Shown piece by piece: positions 3,970-44,284 of a DNA stretch of 44,398 nt. Numbering within the stretch: the stretch's first letter is position 1; each line of letters begins with the position of its first letter. The DNA is from a virus (lineage: Duplodnaviria; Caudoviricetes). The stretch covers positions 1-44,398 of IMG/VR virus record IMGVR_UViG_3300015050_000672; one strand, given 5' to 3'. Made by a program: the position numbers and the translations under genes. Under the pieces are notes generated by a model, which ran no database searches, was not told the origin of the DNA, and saw nothing but the letters and a program-made list of their open reading frames with translations.

Positions 3970-4458
3970 CTAGTATTGTGACCTTCGGACATACTCAGCT
4001 TCAAGCTGGTCAAGTGGGCATGCCCTCAAAGCCGTAGTAATGTTGTAAAGCGGCGTCACGGTCCATTTCGCTTGGTTCCGATCCATGAATTCTCTGACTT
4101 CCTGCTCCCGGTCGGTGGTCAAGATTTCCCGATCAGAAACGCAGTGCCAGGCATTAGGACTGGGTTTGGCGCCCTCGGCAGGACTCGAACCTGCGACCTC
4201 GGGTTTAGAAAACCCTTGCTCTATCCGCTGAGCTACGAGGGCGGGAAGCGAGACATAATCACGGGACCCAATTGAATAGTTGGGCCTAGCGCGCAATTTA
4301 ACAATTTCTGCCATGGCATCCTCCAGCAATCGGTCAATTGGTTCGTTAACATCGGGGTCAATTTCGTCACGAATCCGCTCCAGAACGTCTTTCATGTCTC
4401 TTCTCCAAATGTTCGGATAGCCGGCCACTCCGCACATTAGGCTCATGCTATTTCCCAC
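3970..4458 (-). CDS. Hypothetical protein that reads through a tRNA gene
   Basis: Open frame with phage-like ends (DAMAEIVKLRA; VTPLY); start may be an internal Met. Confidence 0.45.
   Translation of the reverse strand: MGNSMSLMCGVAGYPNIWRRDMKDVLERIRDEIDPDVNEPIDRLLEDAMAEIVKLRARPNYSIGSRDYVSLPALVAQRIEQGFSKPEVAGSSPAEGAKPSPNAWHCVSDREILTTDREQEVREFMDRNQAKWTVTPLYNITTALRACPLDQLEAEYVRRSQY
4167..4242 (-). tRNA. tRNA-Arg (anticodon UCU)
   Basis: 76 nt: acceptor GCCCTCG/CGAGGGC, D arm GCTC-AGCGGATA-GAGC, anticodon loop TT-TCT-AA, T arm GCAGG-TTCGAGT-CCTGC, encoded G-CCA end. Confidence 0.93.
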
Positions 4459-7286: not shown

Positions 7287-7486
7287 CACTCTGCCTCCAA
7301 CAGTTCGAGCAGATCGTTGATTGCTTCCTGCTCGGTTGCGCCGCGCCCAATCTGACCGCGCGTCCCGCTATCTTCGGCGCCGTCGTAATTGTCGGTGACT
7401 GCTGACCAATCCATGTTGCGGACCGGAATCGGCGGGTAGTCAAAGCTGGTGTGGATGCGAAAACCGTTGGTGTCGTGGATTGCCAT
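7286..7486 (-). CDS. Hypothetical phage protein
   Basis: YPPIPVRNMDWSA...GRGATEQEAINDL; TGATG-coupled start at 7486. Confidence 0.65.
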   Translation of the reverse strand: MAIHDTNGFRIHTSFDYPPIPVRNMDWSAVTDNYDGAEDSGTRGQIGRGATEQEAINDLLELLEAE

Positions 7487-8241
7487 CACACGCTCTCCCG
7501 CTGCATCAACCCTCTCGCATGAGCCATATCGACCATGGCCCGAACGATGATTTCCGTTTCCTTGCCCAGCGCAGTGCCGCCGCGAGTTTTCGCCCAGTGC
7601 GCTTGTGCCTCCGCTATCGTGAACAGGCGGCAACCAGCCTTGACCATCGGCTCCGTGTCGCCAGTGAGTTTCTGCAAGAAGAAGGCGTAGCCATCGGCTC
7701 GTGATGCGCCTTGAATAATCCACTGATCGCCGAGGTTCGCGCCGCTGAGGTCCGCGCCGATGAGGTTCGCGCCGCTGAGGTTCGCGCCGCGGAGGTCCGC
7801 GCCGCTGAGGTTCGCGCCGCTGAGGTCCGCGCCGCGGAGGTCCGCGCCGATGAGGTCCGCGCCGATGAGGTTCGCGCCGCTGAGGTTCGCGCCGCTGAGG
7901 TCCGCGCCGCTGAGGTCCGCGCCGCGGAGGTACGCGCCGATGAGGTTCGCGCCGATGAGGTACGCGCCGATGAGGTTCGCGCCGCTGAGGTTCGCGCGGC
8001 TGAGGTCCGCGCCGCTGAGGTACGCGCCGCGGAGGTCCGCGCCGCTGAGGTCCGCGCCGCTGAGGTACGCGCCGCGGAGGTCCGCGCCGCTGAGGTCCGC
8101 GCCGCTGAGGTCCGCGCCGCTTTTGATTGCAGCCTTGACGGCCAAGCCAAGCTTGACGCTCGGAAAAGCATCCTCGCTGCAAGTGATTTCAGCGGAGAAC
8201 TGAACCGCGCCAGTAAAGCGGTTGAGGATATCGTATTTCAT
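7486..8241 (-). CDS. Pentapeptide-repeat protein with C-terminal DUF5758-like domain
   Basis: 26 x (S/R/I)GA(D/N/Y)L; C-terminal [17 protein letters not shown]. Confidence 0.92.
7732..8121. repeat. Tandem array of 26 x 15-bp units
   Basis: Unit gaggt(c/t/a)cgcgcc(gct/gcg/gat), encoding the pentapeptides. Confidence 0.95.
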
Positions 8242-14323: not shown

Positions 14324-14352
14324 TTGACGGTCCGCCCGGATGTGTGCATATT
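14324..14352 (+). promoter_or_regulatory. Late promoter (pR'-like)
   Basis: TTGACG-N17-CATATT directly after the putative late regulator. Confidence 0.65.
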
Positions 14353-14378
14353 GCCATGGTCGGAAGTGATTTGATTTG

Positions 14379-14410
14379 GCCCGCTCGGAGAAATCCGTGG
14401 CGGGCTTTTT
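14379..14410 (+). terminator. Intrinsic terminator (tR'-like)
   Basis: GCCCGC-TCGGAGAAATCCGTG-GCGGGC followed by TTTTT. Confidence 0.75.
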
Positions 14411-14600
14411 GCTGAAGTGCCCAGAGAGGGCGGACCGGATCATTACCGGCCAAATAACGGGCGCCGTCCCGTACCGAGGGCAGAACTCGGCTTCAGCGAC
14501 CAGTTCGGGCGGCACCGCTAGTCAACACGCCACATCCTCCCCATGTGCTCCGATTATACGTGAGCAGAGCGTAATGAAGCGAGTGCCGCCCGGAGCCTAA

Positions 14601-14715
14601 TCTGACTGCGGCGTGGAAGGACACGCGTGGGAATCGCATTTAAAAGCCGCTACCAAAGCCCAGCGATTGGGATCGGCCTGCGATTAGTCGGTATCAAGCC
14701 CGGCCAGTCAGAGCC
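14601..14715 (+). ncRNA. Non-canonical tRNA-like structured RNA with an extended central arm
   Basis: 8-bp closing stem TCTGACTG/CAGTCAGA; arm GCGTG-GAAGGA-CACGC; long arm AATCGCA...TGCGATT; T-like arm GTCGG-TATCAAGC-CCGGC. Confidence 0.6.
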
Positions 14716-20082: not shown

Positions 20083-20108
20083 TTCCGGCCCTTTGAGGCT
20101 GGTTGCCC

Positions 20109-20129
20109 ACCCGCTTCGGCGGGTTTTTT
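20109..20129 (+). terminator. Intrinsic terminator
   Basis: ACCCGC-TTCG-GCGGGT followed by a T run. Confidence 0.8.
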
Positions 20130-22314: not shown

Positions 22315-22527
22315 ATGGCTCTCAAGGAACTCTCTGATCTCAGCCCGGACGGCACTCGCCTGGGTCAGTCCGCGGCCGATCTCATCAGCTTTCATGGCAA
22401 GGCTGTATGTGACCAGGCGGCGGCGATCACCTGCGCTACCAACGCCACGGCGGCGACTGTGCGGACTGCGGTTCGTAACGTCATCACTGCGCTGGTGGAA
22501 AAGGGCCTCGTTGCCTCTGGTCCGTAG
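22315..22527 (+). CDS. Small head decoration-like protein
   Basis: DGTRLGQSAADLISFHG...ALVEKGLV; AGGAG SD; directly after the coat gene. Confidence 0.65.
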   Translation: MALKELSDLSPDGTRLGQSAADLISFHGKAVCDQAAAITCATNATAATVRTAVRNVITALVEKGLVASGP

Positions 22528-23234
22528 TGCGGATTGAATTTACGTCAAACGGCTGCGTTCCTGCGGCCGATCTTGAACGTAACGAAGACTATGCGCGGCG
22601 GCTTGGGTTCCCGAAATGGAGCCCGGCCGCCTCGCAGCGCCTTGCTGTGGTTGGTGGCGGGCCTTCCATCGCTGACCACATCGAGGAACTGGCGGCGTGG
22701 GATGGCGATGTCTGGGCCATTAACGGGGCGTTTAAGTGGTGCTCACGTCAAGGTATTGACGCCGTATTCTTCACCATAGATCCGCTTCCGGCGACGGCGC
22801 AACATGCGGTCGGGGTGGGGCGGGCGATTATTGCCACACATTGCGATCCCTCGTTGTTTGATGCGTTGCATGGCGCTGACGTTGAGGCGTTCAAGCTAGG
22901 TCACGCCGGGGCTACGACCGCGACCGCTGCGCCGCTCATAGCGGCCGATATGGGCTACCGTTCGGTTTCGTTCTTTGGGTGCGAGTCCAGTTTTGGCAAC
23001 GAAACGCATGTTTACGGCAATAGAGACGTAAAAAGCCTGATGCGCGTTCGCTGCAACGACCACGAATTCCTAACCACACCCGATATGATGATGCAGGCCG
23101 AGTTCCTGGGTGAACTAATCCGGGAAGTCCCGATGTTTTCAGATCGTTCGGGCGGGCTTTTGTCTGCGTTCATCGCCAATCCAGAAATAGACGTGATCGC
23201 GGCAACCCCGCTCATCCACGAGGCCGTTGCATGA
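22527..23234 (+). CDS. MptE-like/Maf (DUF115) glycosyltransferase-fold protein
   Basis: LAVVGGGPSI...VWAINGA...MGYRSVSFFGCESSF...HVY. Confidence 0.65.
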   Translation: MRIEFTSNGCVPAADLERNEDYARRLGFPKWSPAASQRLAVVGGGPSIADHIEELAAWDGDVWAINGAFKWCSRQGIDAVFFTIDPLPATAQHAVGVGRAIIATHCDPSLFDALHGADVEAFKLGHAGATTATAAPLIAADMGYRSVSFFGCESSFGNETHVYGNRDVKSLMRVRCNDHEFLTTPDMMMQAEFLGELIREVPMFSDRSGGLLSAFIANPEIDVIAATPLIHEAVA

Positions 23235-32975: not shown

Positions 32976-33283
32976 GCCTCATTACCCAGCATCTTCACCT
33001 ATCCGACAAGGACACCGCCGAGCGTCTTTGTCGAATTGAATCCATGCTCGGTTCAATCAAGGAGTTAATTCGAATGTCGTTTGAAGACCTGAAAGTCGCT
33101 CTCGTAGCCGCCGATGCCAAGGCCGATGCCATCAAGGCAGACGTCGTTTTGCTGATGGAAAAGATTGCGGCGATCCCCGTTGCCGGCATGACCCCTGAGC
33201 AGGAAGCGGCGCTTGCCGAAGCCAAAACGCTTGCCGACGCGCTCAATGAAAAGCTTGGCGGCATCGACGCCCTTAACCCGTAA
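32972..33283 (+). CDS. Coiled-coil hypothetical protein
   Basis: Helical Ala-rich; an alternative start at 33074 has an AAGGAG SD. Confidence 0.55.
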   Translation: MSLITQHLHLSDKDTAERLCRIESMLGSIKELIRMSFEDLKVALVAADAKADAIKADVVLLMEKIAAIPVAGMTPEQEAALAEAKTLADALNEKLGGIDALNP

Positions 33284-33292
33284 GGAGATAAA

Positions 33293-33478
33293 ATGTCCAG
33301 CATCATGGATTGGTTTTCGTCGGCGAACTGGGGCGATATTTTGGGCGTAGGAGCGGCGTTTATGCTGTTCTTCGACCGGCTCGCCAAGCTGACGCCGACC
33401 GACTCTGACAATGCCATCGTCGCGACGCTTTACAAGGTGTTCTCGATCCTCGGCGTCAAAGTACCGGACATCAAGTAA
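33293..33478 (+). CDS. Putative holin
   Basis: Small hydrophobic protein with KLTPTDSDN motif; AAGGAG SD; inside the lysis cassette. Confidence 0.6.
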   Translation: MSSIMDWFSSANWGDILGVGAAFMLFFDRLAKLTPTDSDNAIVATLYKVFSILGVKVPDIK

Positions 33479-35002: not shown

Positions 35003-36235
35003 ATGGCCTTCTCGCCACCCCCGAGTGACGAACAGTGCCGCGAAGCGTATCAGGCCAGCCAAACCCACAAGGTTCATTCACGCGCTGCGCAAGCGATCAA
35101 CATAACCGTACCACAACTGAAGTGGCGGATTAAGCTCTATTTCGAACGCGGGCTAGGCGGCACGGCGCCGGTTCTCCCAGGATTTCGAATCTCCAAAACC
35201 ACAGCCGTCACCAACCAAGACGGCGAGATCGTTCGCGAGTTCATCCAGCAAAGGCCAGAACTTGGCGAGGAGTTTGAGGTTCCTGCTGGACATGCTGTTA
35301 AGGGCGTGTCTGCTCTGGTTGGTGCTGACGGCCGTACCATTCAGCAATGGATCAGGACGAAAGAGCAAACACAAACCGACCTGATTGCGGCCATCAAGGA
35401 AGAGTTCTCGCAGTACAGGGGAACAGCGAAGCTAACCAAGCCGCCAAAGGAAACTCACTCCGACCTGATGCAGATTTACCCGGTCTGCGACGTTCACGCC
35501 GGTATGCTGGCATGGGGACCGGAGACGGGAGAATCCAACGACCTGAAGATCGGCGTTGACCGAGTGGACGGCGCGTTGCAGCGCCTCATATCTCTTTCGC
35601 CTCCCGCCGAGACGGCCGCGATTATCAACCCCGGGGATTTCTTCCATGCCGATTCGCAGTCGAACGCAACGCCAGCTTCCGGCCACCAGCTTGACGTTGA
35701 CGGCCGCGCGCAGAAGGTCAAGCTTGCGGGCGTTCAACTGCTCAGGCGCTCCATTGATTACGCGCTGCAAAAACACTCGCGTGTAATCGTCAAGAACCTG
35801 AAGGGCAACCACGACCCAGAGTCCGCAGCCTGGTTGAACATCGCCTTGGGCATGTTTTATTCCGATGAGCCTCGGGTAGAGATCGACCTTGAGGACGGCA
35901 ATAACGATATCTGGCTGCACCTGTTCGGAGTCAACTACATCGGGGCAACGCACGGCCACACCATGAAGCCAGAGCGGATGGCGATGGTAATGGCTGACGA
36001 CAACCCGGAGTATTGGGGAGCGTCCAAATATCGCTGGATGATCTTCGGGCATATCCATCATGAGACGGTCAAGGAGGTCGGCTCGGTTCGTTGCGAGAGC
36101 TTCCGTCAGCCCGTCCCCAAGGACGCCTACGCTCATAGCCACGGCTACCGGGCGGGTAATTCAATGTCGGCGGTAACCCTGCACAAGTCTGACGGCGAGA
36201 TTGGCCGGCACAAGATCAACTTTCCGAGGGGCTGA
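35003..36235 (+). CDS. Calcineurin-like metallophosphoesterase with N-terminal HTH-like extension
   Basis: All five motifs present: DxH (CDVHAG), GD (PGDFFH), GNHD, HGH, GHIHH. Confidence 0.85.
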   Translation: MAFSPPPSDEQCREAYQASQTHKVHSRAAQAINITVPQLKWRIKLYFERGLGGTAPVLPGFRISKTTAVTNQDGEIVREFIQQRPELGEEFEVPAGHAVKGVSALVGADGRTIQQWIRTKEQTQTDLIAAIKEEFSQYRGTAKLTKPPKETHSDLMQIYPVCDVHAGMLAWGPETGESNDLKIGVDRVDGALQRLISLSPPAETAAIINPGDFFHADSQSNATPASGHQLDVDGRAQKVKLAGVQLLRRSIDYALQKHSRVIVKNLKGNHDPESAAWLNIALGMFYSDEPRVEIDLEDGNNDIWLHLFGVNYIGATHGHTMKPERMAMVMADDNPEYWGASKYRWMIFGHIHHETVKEVGSVRCESFRQPVPKDAYAHSHGYRAGNSMSAVTLHKSDGEIGRHKINFPRG

Positions 36236-36585
36236 TGGCGCTAACGCTTACGGCGGAAATGCTTGCGCACGCCTATGATTATCTGGCTTGTCAGAAACCG
36301 TTCAACAGTTGGAATTTGCCGCCATCCGAGGACGTTAAATTCTCGGTGGTCCGTCGTAAGGACCGCTTCGCGCACTACCAGATGAAGGGCGGGGAGCATC
36401 ACATCGTGTTCTCGTCGCACTATGTTGGTCGGCATGAAGTTTTGATTTCAACGATGGCGCACGAAATGATACACTTGCACGTCGAACAAGTCTGCATCGC
36501 AACCAGCAATCCGCACGATGCCGCGTTTCACAAGTTCGCTGATCGCGTCTGCAAGATACACGAATTTGATCGACGGACTTTTTAA
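36235..36585 (+). CDS. SprT-like zinc metalloprotease
   Basis: TMAHEMIHL...PHDAAF (HExxH plus downstream H). Confidence 0.75.
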   Translation: MALTLTAEMLAHAYDYLACQKPFNSWNLPPSEDVKFSVVRRKDRFAHYQMKGGEHHIVFSSHYVGRHEVLISTMAHEMIHLHVEQVCIATSNPHDAAFHKFADRVCKIHEFDRRTF

Positions 36586-37005
36586 GTGTACGAGATCGCG
36601 GAAATCGGCGGCCTTGATAACAGTGCAACCATCGAACACTTCAACGGGCTTGATCCGATCTTCCCGAGACTTGAGCTAAAGCATCTGGTCAACGGTTACT
36701 GGTGGCTTGCTTACCAGCAAGACGATCCTGTGGCGTTCGCTGGCATGGTTCCTTTCGGCCTTCCGGGTGTCGGATATTTCAAGCGCTGTTACGTCAAGCC
36801 GGATCATCACGGCCGCGGGCTGCAATATCGCTTGATGGCGGCAAGAGAGTTGAAGGCGAAGCAACTTGGCTGGACGTGTCTGGTTAGCGAGTGCGGAGAT
36901 GGTAATACTTACTCTGCGAACAACTTCCGGCGGTTCGGGTTTGAGCAGTTTGAACCAGAACAGCCTTGGGCGTCGGCTTCGATTTATTGGCTGAAACGCC
37001 TTTAG
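36586..37005 (+). CDS. GNAT-family acetyltransferase
   Basis: YVKPDHHGRGLQYRL acetyl-CoA motif; NTYSANNFRRFGF. Confidence 0.85.
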   Translation: MYEIAEIGGLDNSATIEHFNGLDPIFPRLELKHLVNGYWWLAYQQDDPVAFAGMVPFGLPGVGYFKRCYVKPDHHGRGLQYRLMAARELKAKQLGWTCLVSECGDGNTYSANNFRRFGFEQFEPEQPWASASIYWLKRL

Positions 37006-41762: not shown

Positions 41763-41882
41763 CTAGAGATGATCGCTTAGTCGGGTGCCTACCAAAACTG
41801 TGAAAACCATTCCGAAGATGAAACCAATCGCCAGGCCGTAAGCGAGGGCTTTCTCTGGGCCGATAAATTCAAGGAAGGTCAT
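41763..41882 (-). CDS. 39-aa membrane peptide
   Basis: MTFLEFIGPEKALAYGLAIGFIFGMVFTVLVGTRLSDHL. Not in the ORF track. Confidence 0.45.
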   Translation of the reverse strand: MTFLEFIGPEKALAYGLAIGFIFGMVFTVLVGTRLSDHL

Positions 41883-41906
41883 AGTCTAAAGCTCACTGTT
41901 TAAGTG

Positions 41907-41981
41907 TGGTGGGGCCGTGGGGATCAATACCCCGACTAGCTGCGCCAGACCTACACCCGCCTTCGCGGGTTCACCGGCCCC
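41907..41981 (-). ncRNA. 75-nt tRNA-like RNA with ACCA end and no normal anticodon loop
   Basis: GGGGCCG/CGGCCCC-ACCA; ACCCGC-GAAG-GCGGGT; CTGGC-GCA-GCTAG; GGGG-TATTGAT-CCCC. Confidence 0.6.
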
Positions 41982-42119
41982 ATAGCCTGAATTCAACGGA
42001 GACAGGCTGAGCCGCATTGCCCGTGCACGGTGCCGATGCGGAACCTTGTGGCGGTCGGTGACTTTCGCTATCACCCTCATTGCCTGCCTCCATCCCCCGG
42101 ACTAGCCGGGAGCGAAACT

Positions 42120-42326
42120 CTATTCCCAACGCAGCCTGCGGATCGTGCCGTTATTGGCATCGATCAGATACATCGAGCCCCCCTCGTCGCTGACGACAGC
42201 GCGTCCGCTAAGCTGTCCGTCAATGCGAATATACGGGATAGCTTCTTGCGTGGCTAGATTGGCCCCCTCTACATCTGAGGCGCCGAGTAATGTTGTCAAT
42301 CCACCGCCTGCGGTTCCACTAAGCAT
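42120..42326 (-). CDS. Hypothetical protein
   Basis: AAGGAG SD, 68 aa. Confidence 0.5.
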   Translation of the reverse strand: MLSGTAGGGLTTLLGASDVEGANLATQEAIPYIRIDGQLSGRAVVSDEGGSMYLIDANNGTIRRLRWE

Positions 42327-42936: not shown

Positions 42937-43146
42937 TCTTGCATCCTTTCCTATGGCGCTCTCTACTGAGCATCGTTCAAAAGCTGTTCCATATCCCGCA
43001 TCTGCCGAGATATCAGATAGGTAGGGATTTCAGGAACCTGGAGCAGCTCAATCAGGTTGCTGCACCGATGGCCTATCGGGCTGTCCGCCCCGTATCTGAC
43101 GCGCTTGGCGATCAGATCACGGCGGAGAACGTCCAGTGAACCTGCC

Positions 43147-43351
43147 TGTGTCAATGGTGTGCCAATATCCTGACACGTTCCTGTGCCGTTCACGGTCGAA
43201 GCTGCTTGATCCTGCAAGGGCATTGCGAATTTCCCCTTATTTTCCAACGGTTGCATAATTTGCGTATTCCCCTATATGGGTGTCACTTTGCCGACTTAAC
43301 CACTTGATCTTGCTTGCCTTCGTCTTTAGCTGTGTCATCTGGCGTGTCAAA
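43147..43351. other. Putative attP region (arm-type repeats around an AT-richer core)
   Basis: GTGTCA/GTGCCA copies at about 43148, 43159, 43171 (inverted), 43280, 43332 and 43344, next to the int 3' end. Confidence 0.45.
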
Positions 43352-44284
43352 AAGCTTGTCCGTCACGGTCGGGTCTTCATCGGCGTGCAGGTACGTGTTG
43401 AACAGGTGCTGCGCCGACTTCCAGCCGCCTGCCTTGGCTATCGTCTTAACGCCTACTCCTTTGTCATGCAGCGACGTAGCGAAGCCGTGGCGGCAGCTAT
43501 GAAACGTCAGCGGCTCTATGCCGGCCGCCATCGTGGCGCGCGCCCACGCGTCTCTGGCGGTCGTGTAGGCGATGTCGAAGGGCTCTTTGTCTTTTGGGAG
43601 GTTCGCAAGGGCAATGAAAAGGTCACTTGGCAAGTGAGCCCTCCTCTCGTTCCCAAGCTTTGTTTGTCGAATGAGCACGCTACGTCCTCGAAAATCGACG
43701 TCTTCCCATCGGACAGCAAGAGCCTCAGAGACACGCGCCCCGGTAGCGAACATGAAGAGGGCAAGGACTGCAACGTCTTGGCGGTCCGCGGCGGCACGAA
43801 AGTCATTGATCCACTCCAGGGTTACGGGCTTCTTGATCTTGGTATCGACCTTGAAGCGTTTCATTCGCATCGGCGGGCACAGGTTCAGTTCGGCGCAGTG
43901 ATTGATCACCGCTAGAACGGGAACCAAGACTTGGCGATTGCGGGTCGAGTTTTTGGCGGATGGATACATAGCCACGGCCGACTGCCTGATAGACCCAGCA
44001 TTCATATCCGTGACCTTGGCATCGCCCCAATATTTTGACAATCGGACAAGGTACTTCGACGGCTTCCCCGAACTGAGATATAAAGCGACAGCCTTCGGCC
44101 ATGTTAGCCCCTTTTCTTTCCCATCGAGACCACGTTTCCAGAACTTGTCTTCAATCGCGGACGCAATTCTTTGCGCTGTTTCTTTGTCAGATGCGCCAGT
44201 AGATCCACGGAGTCGATTTCCGGCAAGCGTTCCCCGATACTGCCAGACAGAGCTTCCCGGACGGCGATAGATTTTGAGGGGCAT
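43283..44284 (-). CDS. int: Tyrosine integrase
   Basis: TGARVSEAL (R), QTK (K), HSCRH (HxxR), GGW, TYLH (Y). Confidence 0.95.
   Translation of the reverse strand: MPLKIYRRPGSSVWQYRGTLAGNRLRGSTGASDKETAQRIASAIEDKFWKRGLDGKEKGLTWPKAVALYLSSGKPSKYLVRLSKYWGDAKVTDMNAGSIRQSAVAMYPSAKNSTRNRQVLVPVLAVINHCAELNLCPPMRMKRFKVDTKIKKPVTLEWINDFRAAADRQDVAVLALFMFATGARVSEALAVRWEDVDFRGRSVLIRQTKLGNERRAHLPSDLFIALANLPKDKEPFDIAYTTARDAWARATMAAGIEPLTFHSCRHGFATSLHDKGVGVKTIAKAGGWKSAQHLFNTYLHADEDPTVTDKLFDTPDDTAKDEGKQDQVVKSAK

Follow-up and report, generated by a model that had tools for sequence, protein, structure and literature searches.

A tRNA-shaped element in a temperate phage, probably descended from tRNA-Ala(GGC), as a candidate RNase P cut site

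Non-decoding tRNA look-alikes occur widely in phage sequence data, and most lack an explanation. The described systems closest to the case reported here include the 8/4 allo-tRNAs, which were described alongside irregular tRNA polycistrons and some of which are inactive in translation (Mukai et al., PMC5389517, available part). The C4 RNAs of phages P1 and P7 and the CI RNA of P4 are small RNAs of temperate phages that are matured by RNase P (accessible sections of PMC5499578). In mycobacteriophage DS6A, a TLD-only tmRNA is short, anticodon-less and equipped with an Ala-type acceptor and CCA (PMC4131195, in its available part). Finally, YrlA is a non-decoding tRNA mimic with a circularly permuted order, in which the D and T loops remain canonical (Chen et al., PMC4201824, partial text).

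The charging and the maturation of such RNAs depend on a few positions. G3-U70 is the main alanine determinant; G3-C70 abolishes alanylation in insect, human and plant systems, and among the other synthetases that use A73, most depend on the anticodon or the tertiary core as well (PMC9976931, sections available). Bacterial RNase P prefers U at −1, A at −2 and an RCCA end (PMC4919922, excerpt), and it cuts substrates without a proper T loop, including the P4 CI and P1/P7 C4 RNAs (PMC5499578, as above).

We analysed one stretch of DNA, called the window below. It comprises an entire phage record that is 44,398 bases long, has 57% G+C and carries a terminal repeat of 123 bases. The phage is complete, temperate and of alphaproteobacterial type. 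It carries terminase, portal, major head protein, repressor and integrase genes, and the GcrA- and GapR-like proteins that it encodes suggest that its host is an alphaproteobacterium. In G103, a genome whose integrase is 62% identical, the tmRNA is of the alphaproteobacterial kind. The only tRNA that ARAGORN and Rfam find in the window is tRNA-Arg(TCT), at 4167-4242. Elsewhere the window encodes a pentapeptide-repeat protein in the early region (7486-8241, minus strand), an MptE-like protein in the head module (22527-23234, plus strand), exonuclease-like, SprT-like and GNAT genes in a row (35003-37005, plus strand) and several HNH and GIY-YIG genes. The element described here is located where small ORFs run leftward, in the interval that separates the integrase from the end of the last tail gene, and its features and those of its surroundings are as follows.

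41907..41981, minus strand: 75-nt tRNA-shaped element with an ACCA end, recognized by its fold
41975..41981, minus strand: 5' strand of the acceptor, identical to that of common alphaproteobacterial tRNA-Ala
41955..41970, minus strand: hairpin at the D position, 6 bp with a GAAG tetraloop
41934..41950, minus strand: middle hairpin in its favoured register, with a GCA triloop (fold)
41937..41953, minus strand: the middle region in an alternative register, with 4/5 stem pairs and a 7-nt loop, 6.2 kcal/mol less stable
41918..41933, minus strand: T arm with a 4-bp G-C stem and the loop UAUUGAU, which has no T-psi-C motif, followed by one unpaired A
41907..41917, minus strand: 3' strand of the acceptor with C at position 70 (U in tRNA-Ala), discriminator A and CCA
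41982..41983, minus strand: leader bases A(−2) and U(−1), matching the preference of bacterial RNase P (PMC4919922, excerpt)
41992..42095, minus strand: upstream stem-clamped RNA, in which a closing helix of about 17 bp surrounds three hairpins
41886..42080, minus strand: 64-codon ORF spanning clamp and element, a doubtful gene whose ribosome site is predicted to be fully paired
41763..41882, minus strand: 39-codon ORF from the ORF list, starting 25 nt past the CCA
42120..42326, minus strand: 68-codon ORF upstream of the element, its 3' part common to contigs of two other runs
43263..43280, minus strand: likely attP core just past the integrase (43283-44284), 1.3 kb from the element

The original prediction, a CCA-ended tRNA mimic that cannot decode, is supported by structure prediction at 41907-41981 and can now be placed on the minus strand, which it had left unstated. 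As it described, G1-G7 and C65-C71 form an acceptor of seven Watson-Crick pairs followed by discriminator A and CCA, position 3:70 (tRNA numbering) is G3-C70, and three hairpins stand in tRNA order with the middle loop GCA and the T loop UAUUGAU. The inability to decode also gains support from the folding model, which gives the triloop register a probability of 0.98 and the 7-nt anticodon register about 1e-4. That description had overlooked that the T stem has only 4 bp and precedes an unpaired A, and that the D-position hairpin has 6 bp and a 4-nt loop. This hairpin has a geometry of the tRNA-Sec/allo-tRNA type (PMC7609411, available part) and is joined to the acceptor on one side and to the middle hairpin on the other by 4-nt links. 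The acceptor-T helix has 11 bp with a bulge, which counts against the cut-site reading favoured below. Neither ARAGORN nor Rfam calls the element, and Rfam gives no relevant match down to E 10.

The minus strand forms a four-way fold of −41.0 kcal/mol that only 3/200 shuffles equal (z −2.85); for comparison, the phage's true tRNA-Arg has z −2.97. The 23 predicted pairs in place have probabilities of 0.67-1.0 in the element alone and 0.58-0.98 within a 570-nt context. That the cloverleaf arose by chance in G+C-rich hairpin DNA, or that the structure belongs to single-stranded DNA and has no RNA role, is very unlikely in our judgement. The element does fold as DNA too (−18.8 kcal/mol), two of its loops presumably resemble very stable DNA mini-hairpins, and looser descriptors yield several CCA-ended cloverleaves by chance. 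However, only one strand folds above background, the plus strand being no better than its shuffles (z −0.86), and there is agreement with tRNA sequences in the acceptor, the T arm and ACCA. A descriptor of the top half, written after the element had been seen (7-bp acceptor, NCCA, abutting T arm and at least 3 hairpins), matched 4 times in 60 dinucleotide-shuffled windows, and none of these windows held a match as stable per base as the element. Run on the window and 28 related phage records, the same descriptor found only the element and two true tRNAs.

By sequence comparison, the element very probably descends from a tRNA, and the parent was probably tRNA-Ala(GGC). Acceptor and discriminator agree at 14/15 positions with the G7-C66 form of alphaproteobacterial tRNA-Ala, and in this alignment U70 to C is all that sets the acceptor apart from the common one, a point that had not been made before. 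The Ala-type acceptor pattern occurs in 57/61 genomes of the order to which G103 belongs, and many of the tRNA-Ala genes there differ from the element's acceptor at position 70 only. To one such tRNA-Ala, 24 positions of the element's last 30 nt align, among them those of GTC in the variable loop and of the T stem GGGG/CCCC. Compared with unselected host tRNAs, the T-arm part is matched as closely by 14/2000 shuffles, a likeness that is not isotype-specific. In the lower half there is no likeness to tRNA-Ala (1200/2000 shuffles as good), and the D-position hairpin does not resemble a tRNA-Ala D arm in sequence.

The middle hairpin may retain a further trace of the parent. In its alternative register the 7-nt loop reads C-U-GGC-G-C, that is, C32, U33 and the alanine anticodon GGC (41946-41944), which had been overlooked. 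The triloop is thus probably a slipped register of this loop, and what was originally called a 3-nt anticodon loop would be a slipped alanine arm. A test devised post hoc found an arm of canonical size with Y32-U33-NGC-R37 in 384/200,000 or 916/200,000 shuffles, depending on the null. Because the 7-nt register is 6.2 kcal/mol weaker and its pair probability is near 1e-4, the anticodon is predicted to be buried. An origin from tRNA-Cys, with GCA itself read as the anticodon, was rejected: the loop opens only at a cost of 5.6 kcal/mol, and Cys is among the lowest-ranking isotypes. Ala ranks first with 52, the next isotype having 43, in a tRNA set that the search pattern had enriched for Ala (26/127). 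Among the 41 unselected tRNAs of G103 itself, Ala and Met tie at 12/15 acceptor positions, and one phage tRNA-Lys (L001) has an acceptor identical to the element's. By sequence, then, the assignment to Ala is not unique.

What became of charging can be suggested from these changes. The alanine determinant is gone, and in the model the anticodon and the tertiary core are both lost. Without the alanine mark and with the old anticodon buried, the element probably neither carries alanine nor reads codons; with all three lost, the RNA probably stays uncharged and binds EF-Tu poorly. This bears on the functions first proposed for it, among which the EF-Tu ligand becomes unlikely without charging, while a processing tag for the upstream RNA fits best.

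The processing tag has two points in its favour: the element retains the marks of an RNase P substrate, and immediately upstream is an RNA with a strong fold. The marks in the sequence are A at −2, U at −1, a helix starting at G+1 and RCCA. The U at −1 may be inherited, because it is common in host tRNA genes (15/41). The stem-clamped RNA at 41992-42095 has z −4.56 with 0/200 shuffles as good, its ends having been picked after the fold was seen.

We therefore favour, tentatively, the reading that the element is a remodelled descendant of a tRNA, probably tRNA-Ala, kept as a cut site for RNase P. Its history would have begun with a tRNA, specifically tRNA-Ala(GGC), whose lower half was then remodelled into two tight hairpins. 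The phage's leftward accessory transcript would contain the element along with the small ORFs around it, and host RNase P would cut before G1. This putative cut would give the upstream stem-clamped RNA a defined 3' end, sever the message of the 64-codon ORF and free a stable, uncharged 75-nt RNA. A second such pair, an ACCA-ended look-alike next to a long-stem RNA, is present at 14410-14597 (z −3.57 and −5.90, respectively). The case for a function is indirect and is made up of the uneven spread of changes, the intact pairing, the structured neighbours and the further mimics that occupy this slot in a related phage or lie elsewhere in this genome; what counts against it is that no second copy was found.

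The clamp helix is also predicted to hide the GGAGG and the ATG at 42080 of the 64-codon ORF, which raises the question of regulation. On a C4/CI-like reading, an antisense RNA matured by RNase P would act with the clamp on the 64-codon or nearby ORFs and so on lysis-lysogeny. The phage is temperate and has small leftward ORFs, and the buried GGAGG and ATG would suit such control. C4 and CI are, moreover, known RNase P substrates (PMC5499578, available sections). Yet the genome gives no match to the Rfam C4 model up to E 10, complements to the unpaired segments of the element reach at most 7 nt within 1.5 kb (those of 8 nt fall on paired segments), and the 64-codon ORF has no relative: among proteins of 35-112 aa it matched only itself. 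We consider this reading quite unlikely. No relatives of the proteins neighbouring the element were found either, and a promoter scan gave nothing significant (1 site vs 1.5 expected).

Contigs of two other runs track the window from 42229 or 42174 to 42104 and then resemble 41994-42010. Because they thus appear without most of the clamp, element and clamp are not a fixed unit. The 43263-43280 block, whose role as an attP core is likely from its sequence context, is a stretch of 15-18 nt directly after the integrase stop that is kept in 7/7 integrase relatives. A wider region, 43127-43280, combines the core with repeated TGACAC arm-type sites and is likewise kept in integrase relatives. The idea that the element is an attP fragment of a tRNA gene was rejected, as both acceptor strands are present and the conserved core lies at 43263-43280.

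A second copy of the element was not found in any search, where the model was built from one sequence and the genome sets are samples. That model (R1, self-score 110 bits), with its limited reach, matched 0/44 and 0/50 phage records and 0/151 family genomes, and its one match in 151 order genomes lies in a coding region. With blastn, phages and plasmids gave one chance match each; the element alone gave 9 matches in phages (E 0.2-7), none of the 3 inspected having acceptor and CCA. Pattern scans of viral sequences returned 0 matches for one pattern, 76 for a second (none homologous, one a true tRNA-Lys, with 53/76 run through ARAGORN) and 8 and 25 for further ones, all by chance. A metagenome scan returned only the window's own contig, and a genome scan returned 0 matches. 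As a DNA query, the element matched weakly in 139 of 401 family genomes, and the 31 inspected were short chance matches, mostly to a conserved coding motif; 2 more of these genomes gave no re-alignment. The same query gave one match, in a coding region, among 50 phage records. For the suggestion that tRNA-Arg(CCT) occupies this slot in relatives, no matching loose end was found among the 11 of 29 that were listed, and the arm that would bear the element is absent from the stretch of the G103 prophage remnant that was examined. The index of sequencing runs that we searched lists no RNA run with the element, which has no bearing on expression. The literature searched, which most subscription papers lay outside, yielded no description of it.

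Because no homologue was found in any search, the chief alternative is a relic pseudogene, left when local rearrangement overwrote the lower half of a captured tRNA-Ala gene. The relic would now be idle, although RNase P may still cut it. We regard this alternative as possible but doubtful. In keeping with it, the element is a singleton, its T loop, T-stem length and G3-U70 pair have all departed from tRNA-Ala, and the region is not conserved even in a relative with a 96% identical capsid. A possible source of the overwriting is also at hand, since the D-position stem recurs in a terminator-like hairpin near 20104-20119 of the same genome. Against idleness stand the distribution of the changes and the folding. 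The top half was kept and the lower half replaced: acceptor and CCA are almost untouched, whereas the lower half is unrecognizable yet fully paired. An acceptor whose sole change turns G-U into G-C, with its pairing intact, would not be favoured by uniform decay. In addition, the element folds as far above its shuffles as the phage's true tRNA, and the neighbouring RNA is strongly folded too.

The closest phage (G001), whose capsid is 96% identical, lacks the element, and in the same slot, from integrase-like genes to the end of the tail gene, it carries a circularly permuted mimic made of T arm, closed acceptor and D arm. This mimic scores 24.3 bits (E 0.012) with the YrlA model, below the cut-off of 69; it lies at L183 17520-17700 (plus strand) and has a large D-loop insert. 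A 21-nt stretch just upstream of it is common to G005 near 1004-1024. Another phage, G008, has two T-arm-bearing elements before its terminase genes at 33,000-33,400, minus strand (L190 13000-13400); one of them is YrlA-like (19.6 bits), and the cluster contains a 13-nt run identical to the 3' part of the element, possibly by chance. The window has a second RNA cluster of its own, at 14.4-14.7 kb and likewise before the terminase genes.

14410-14502, plus strand: ACCA-ended cloverleaf missed by ARAGORN and Rfam (z −3.57)
14503-14597, plus strand: long-stem RNA (z −5.90)
14602-14715, plus strand: member of a large phage tRNA-chassis family, without an Rfam match

The cloverleaf has an 8-bp acceptor, a 7-nt loop with CAT at the anticodon place, a long V arm and a T arm with a 5-bp stem and a GGCAGAA loop, and no homologue was found for it by blastn. 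Upstream, at 14324-14410 (plus strand), promoter-like hexamers 17 nt apart are followed by a terminator-like hairpin with a T run, as read by eye. The long-stem RNAs at 14503-14597 (plus strand) and 41992-42095 (minus strand) have unrelated cores, and each is closed by a long stem and abuts an ACCA-ended look-alike.

The chassis family is also found in loci L284-L403 and in G002, G009 and G020. Its members have a covarying 7-bp acceptor, a fixed D arm (invariant through selection by the search pattern), an 8-nt T loop and a variable middle that replaces the anticodon arm. A 19-mer of the chassis occurs in an estimated ~470 viral stretches, 120 of which were examined. In 98 parsed copies the middles span 45-190 nt, and NCCA is encoded in 2 only; an alignment of 38 copies has 99.3% of cells paired, with changes on both sides at 10/16 pairs. 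The element was rejected as a member: model R2 gives the copy at 14602 73.4 bits and misses the element to E 10 with filters off, so that a resemblance of the T arms seen by eye failed this test. Further phage tRNA-like genes that end in CCA and have unusual T loops occur at L334 1733-1823 (plus strand), where a gene with a 13-bp middle hairpin adjoins a chassis-family member, and in the tRNA clusters of L305 and L321.

Several non-decoding mimics in related phages are also what a free decoy might lead one to expect, that is, an uncharged RNA that soaks up host or defence proteins binding the tRNA-Ala-type acceptor or the CCA end, the loss of G3-U70 preventing charging. Acceptor and CCA are the best-kept parts of the element, and a phage RNA little more than the tRNA-like domain of tmRNA has been proposed to titrate SmpB (PMC4131195, available part). 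The element would, however, expose no anticodon loop to anticodon nucleases, and no Ro60/TROVE, RtcB, synthetase or CCA-enzyme family occurs among 61 phage proteins. We judge the decoy unlikely. A fuller version, to which we give little weight too, has selection switching the tRNA off at both ends: U70 to C would kill alanine identity, the register slip would hide GGC and the Sec-like D hairpin would rigidify the RNA. The outcome would be a decoy that is stable, uncharged and CCA-ended; it would occupy an exchangeable "mimic slot" by the integrase and shield host tRNA ends or tie up a tRNA-binding defence protein.

If, as we tentatively prefer, the element is an RNase P cut mark, the phage has reused the top half of a tRNA as punctuation, much as C4 and CI RNAs do with their tRNA-like ends; as a relic it would be unremarkable. 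Because the probable parent is still visible, the steps from tRNA to mimic (identity pair, anticodon register and elbow) could be read and reversed singly in vitro. The cluster at 14.4-14.7 kb, with its large covarying family, is a better entry point than the singleton element.

Set against known systems, the element shares with alphaproteobacterial tRNA-Ala (RF00005) the acceptor and discriminator at 14/15 positions, a 7-bp acceptor with an encoded 3' CCA, the variable-loop GTC, the GGGG/CCCC T stem and the cryptic U33-GGC. In contrast to canonical tRNA-Ala, it combines A73 with G3-C70 rather than G3-U70; the 7-nt U33/NGC loop on a 5-bp stem survives only in the register that has 4/5 pairs and a probability of about 1e-4; and the 5-bp T stem, T-psi-C-R-A loop and D-loop GG give way to 4 bp, UAUUGAU and a tetraloop. 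The U8/A14/G18G19 D arm is absent, and both RF00005 and ARAGORN stay below threshold. With the 8/4 allo-tRNAs it shares a long D stem with a tetraloop (6 bp and 4 nt here), a 4-bp T stem and occurrence in phages (Mukai et al., PMC5389517, available part). Whereas those have a 12-bp branch (8 + 4), the element has 7 pairs, an unpaired A and 4 pairs, with G-A at the eighth position; in place of an anticodon arm plus a long V arm and G/U73 it has one middle hairpin and A73, hence three arms, not four. Its 3' end motif is absent from the one supplement table file of PMC5389517 that was searched.

Like the C4 and CI RNAs, the element sits in a temperate phage and, by its sequence, carries the marks for RNase P maturation. 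It differs in giving no RF01695 match, in keeping a recognizable tRNA top half and in having no complementary target on the same transcript (within 1.5 kb, matches do not exceed 8 nt). The TLD-only tmRNA of DS6A is the likeness for a short, anticodon-less RNA with an Ala-type acceptor and CCA (PMC4131195, available part), but tmRNAs have G3-U70 and an unpaired D loop, whereas the element has G3-C70 and a paired D hairpin and matches no tmRNA model; a host-type tmRNA was compared with it directly. YrlA is, like the element, a non-decoding tRNA mimic, but the element is unpermuted, lacks both canonical loops that YrlA keeps (PMC4201824, partial text) and has neither the T-AS-D order nor an RF02553 match, and no Ro60/TROVE partner family occurs among the 61 proteins. 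Thus, by their membership criteria, the element lies outside tRNA-Ala, allo-tRNA, C4, tmRNA and YrlA; if it works at all, by analogy it resembles the tRNA-shaped RNase P substrates of temperate phages.
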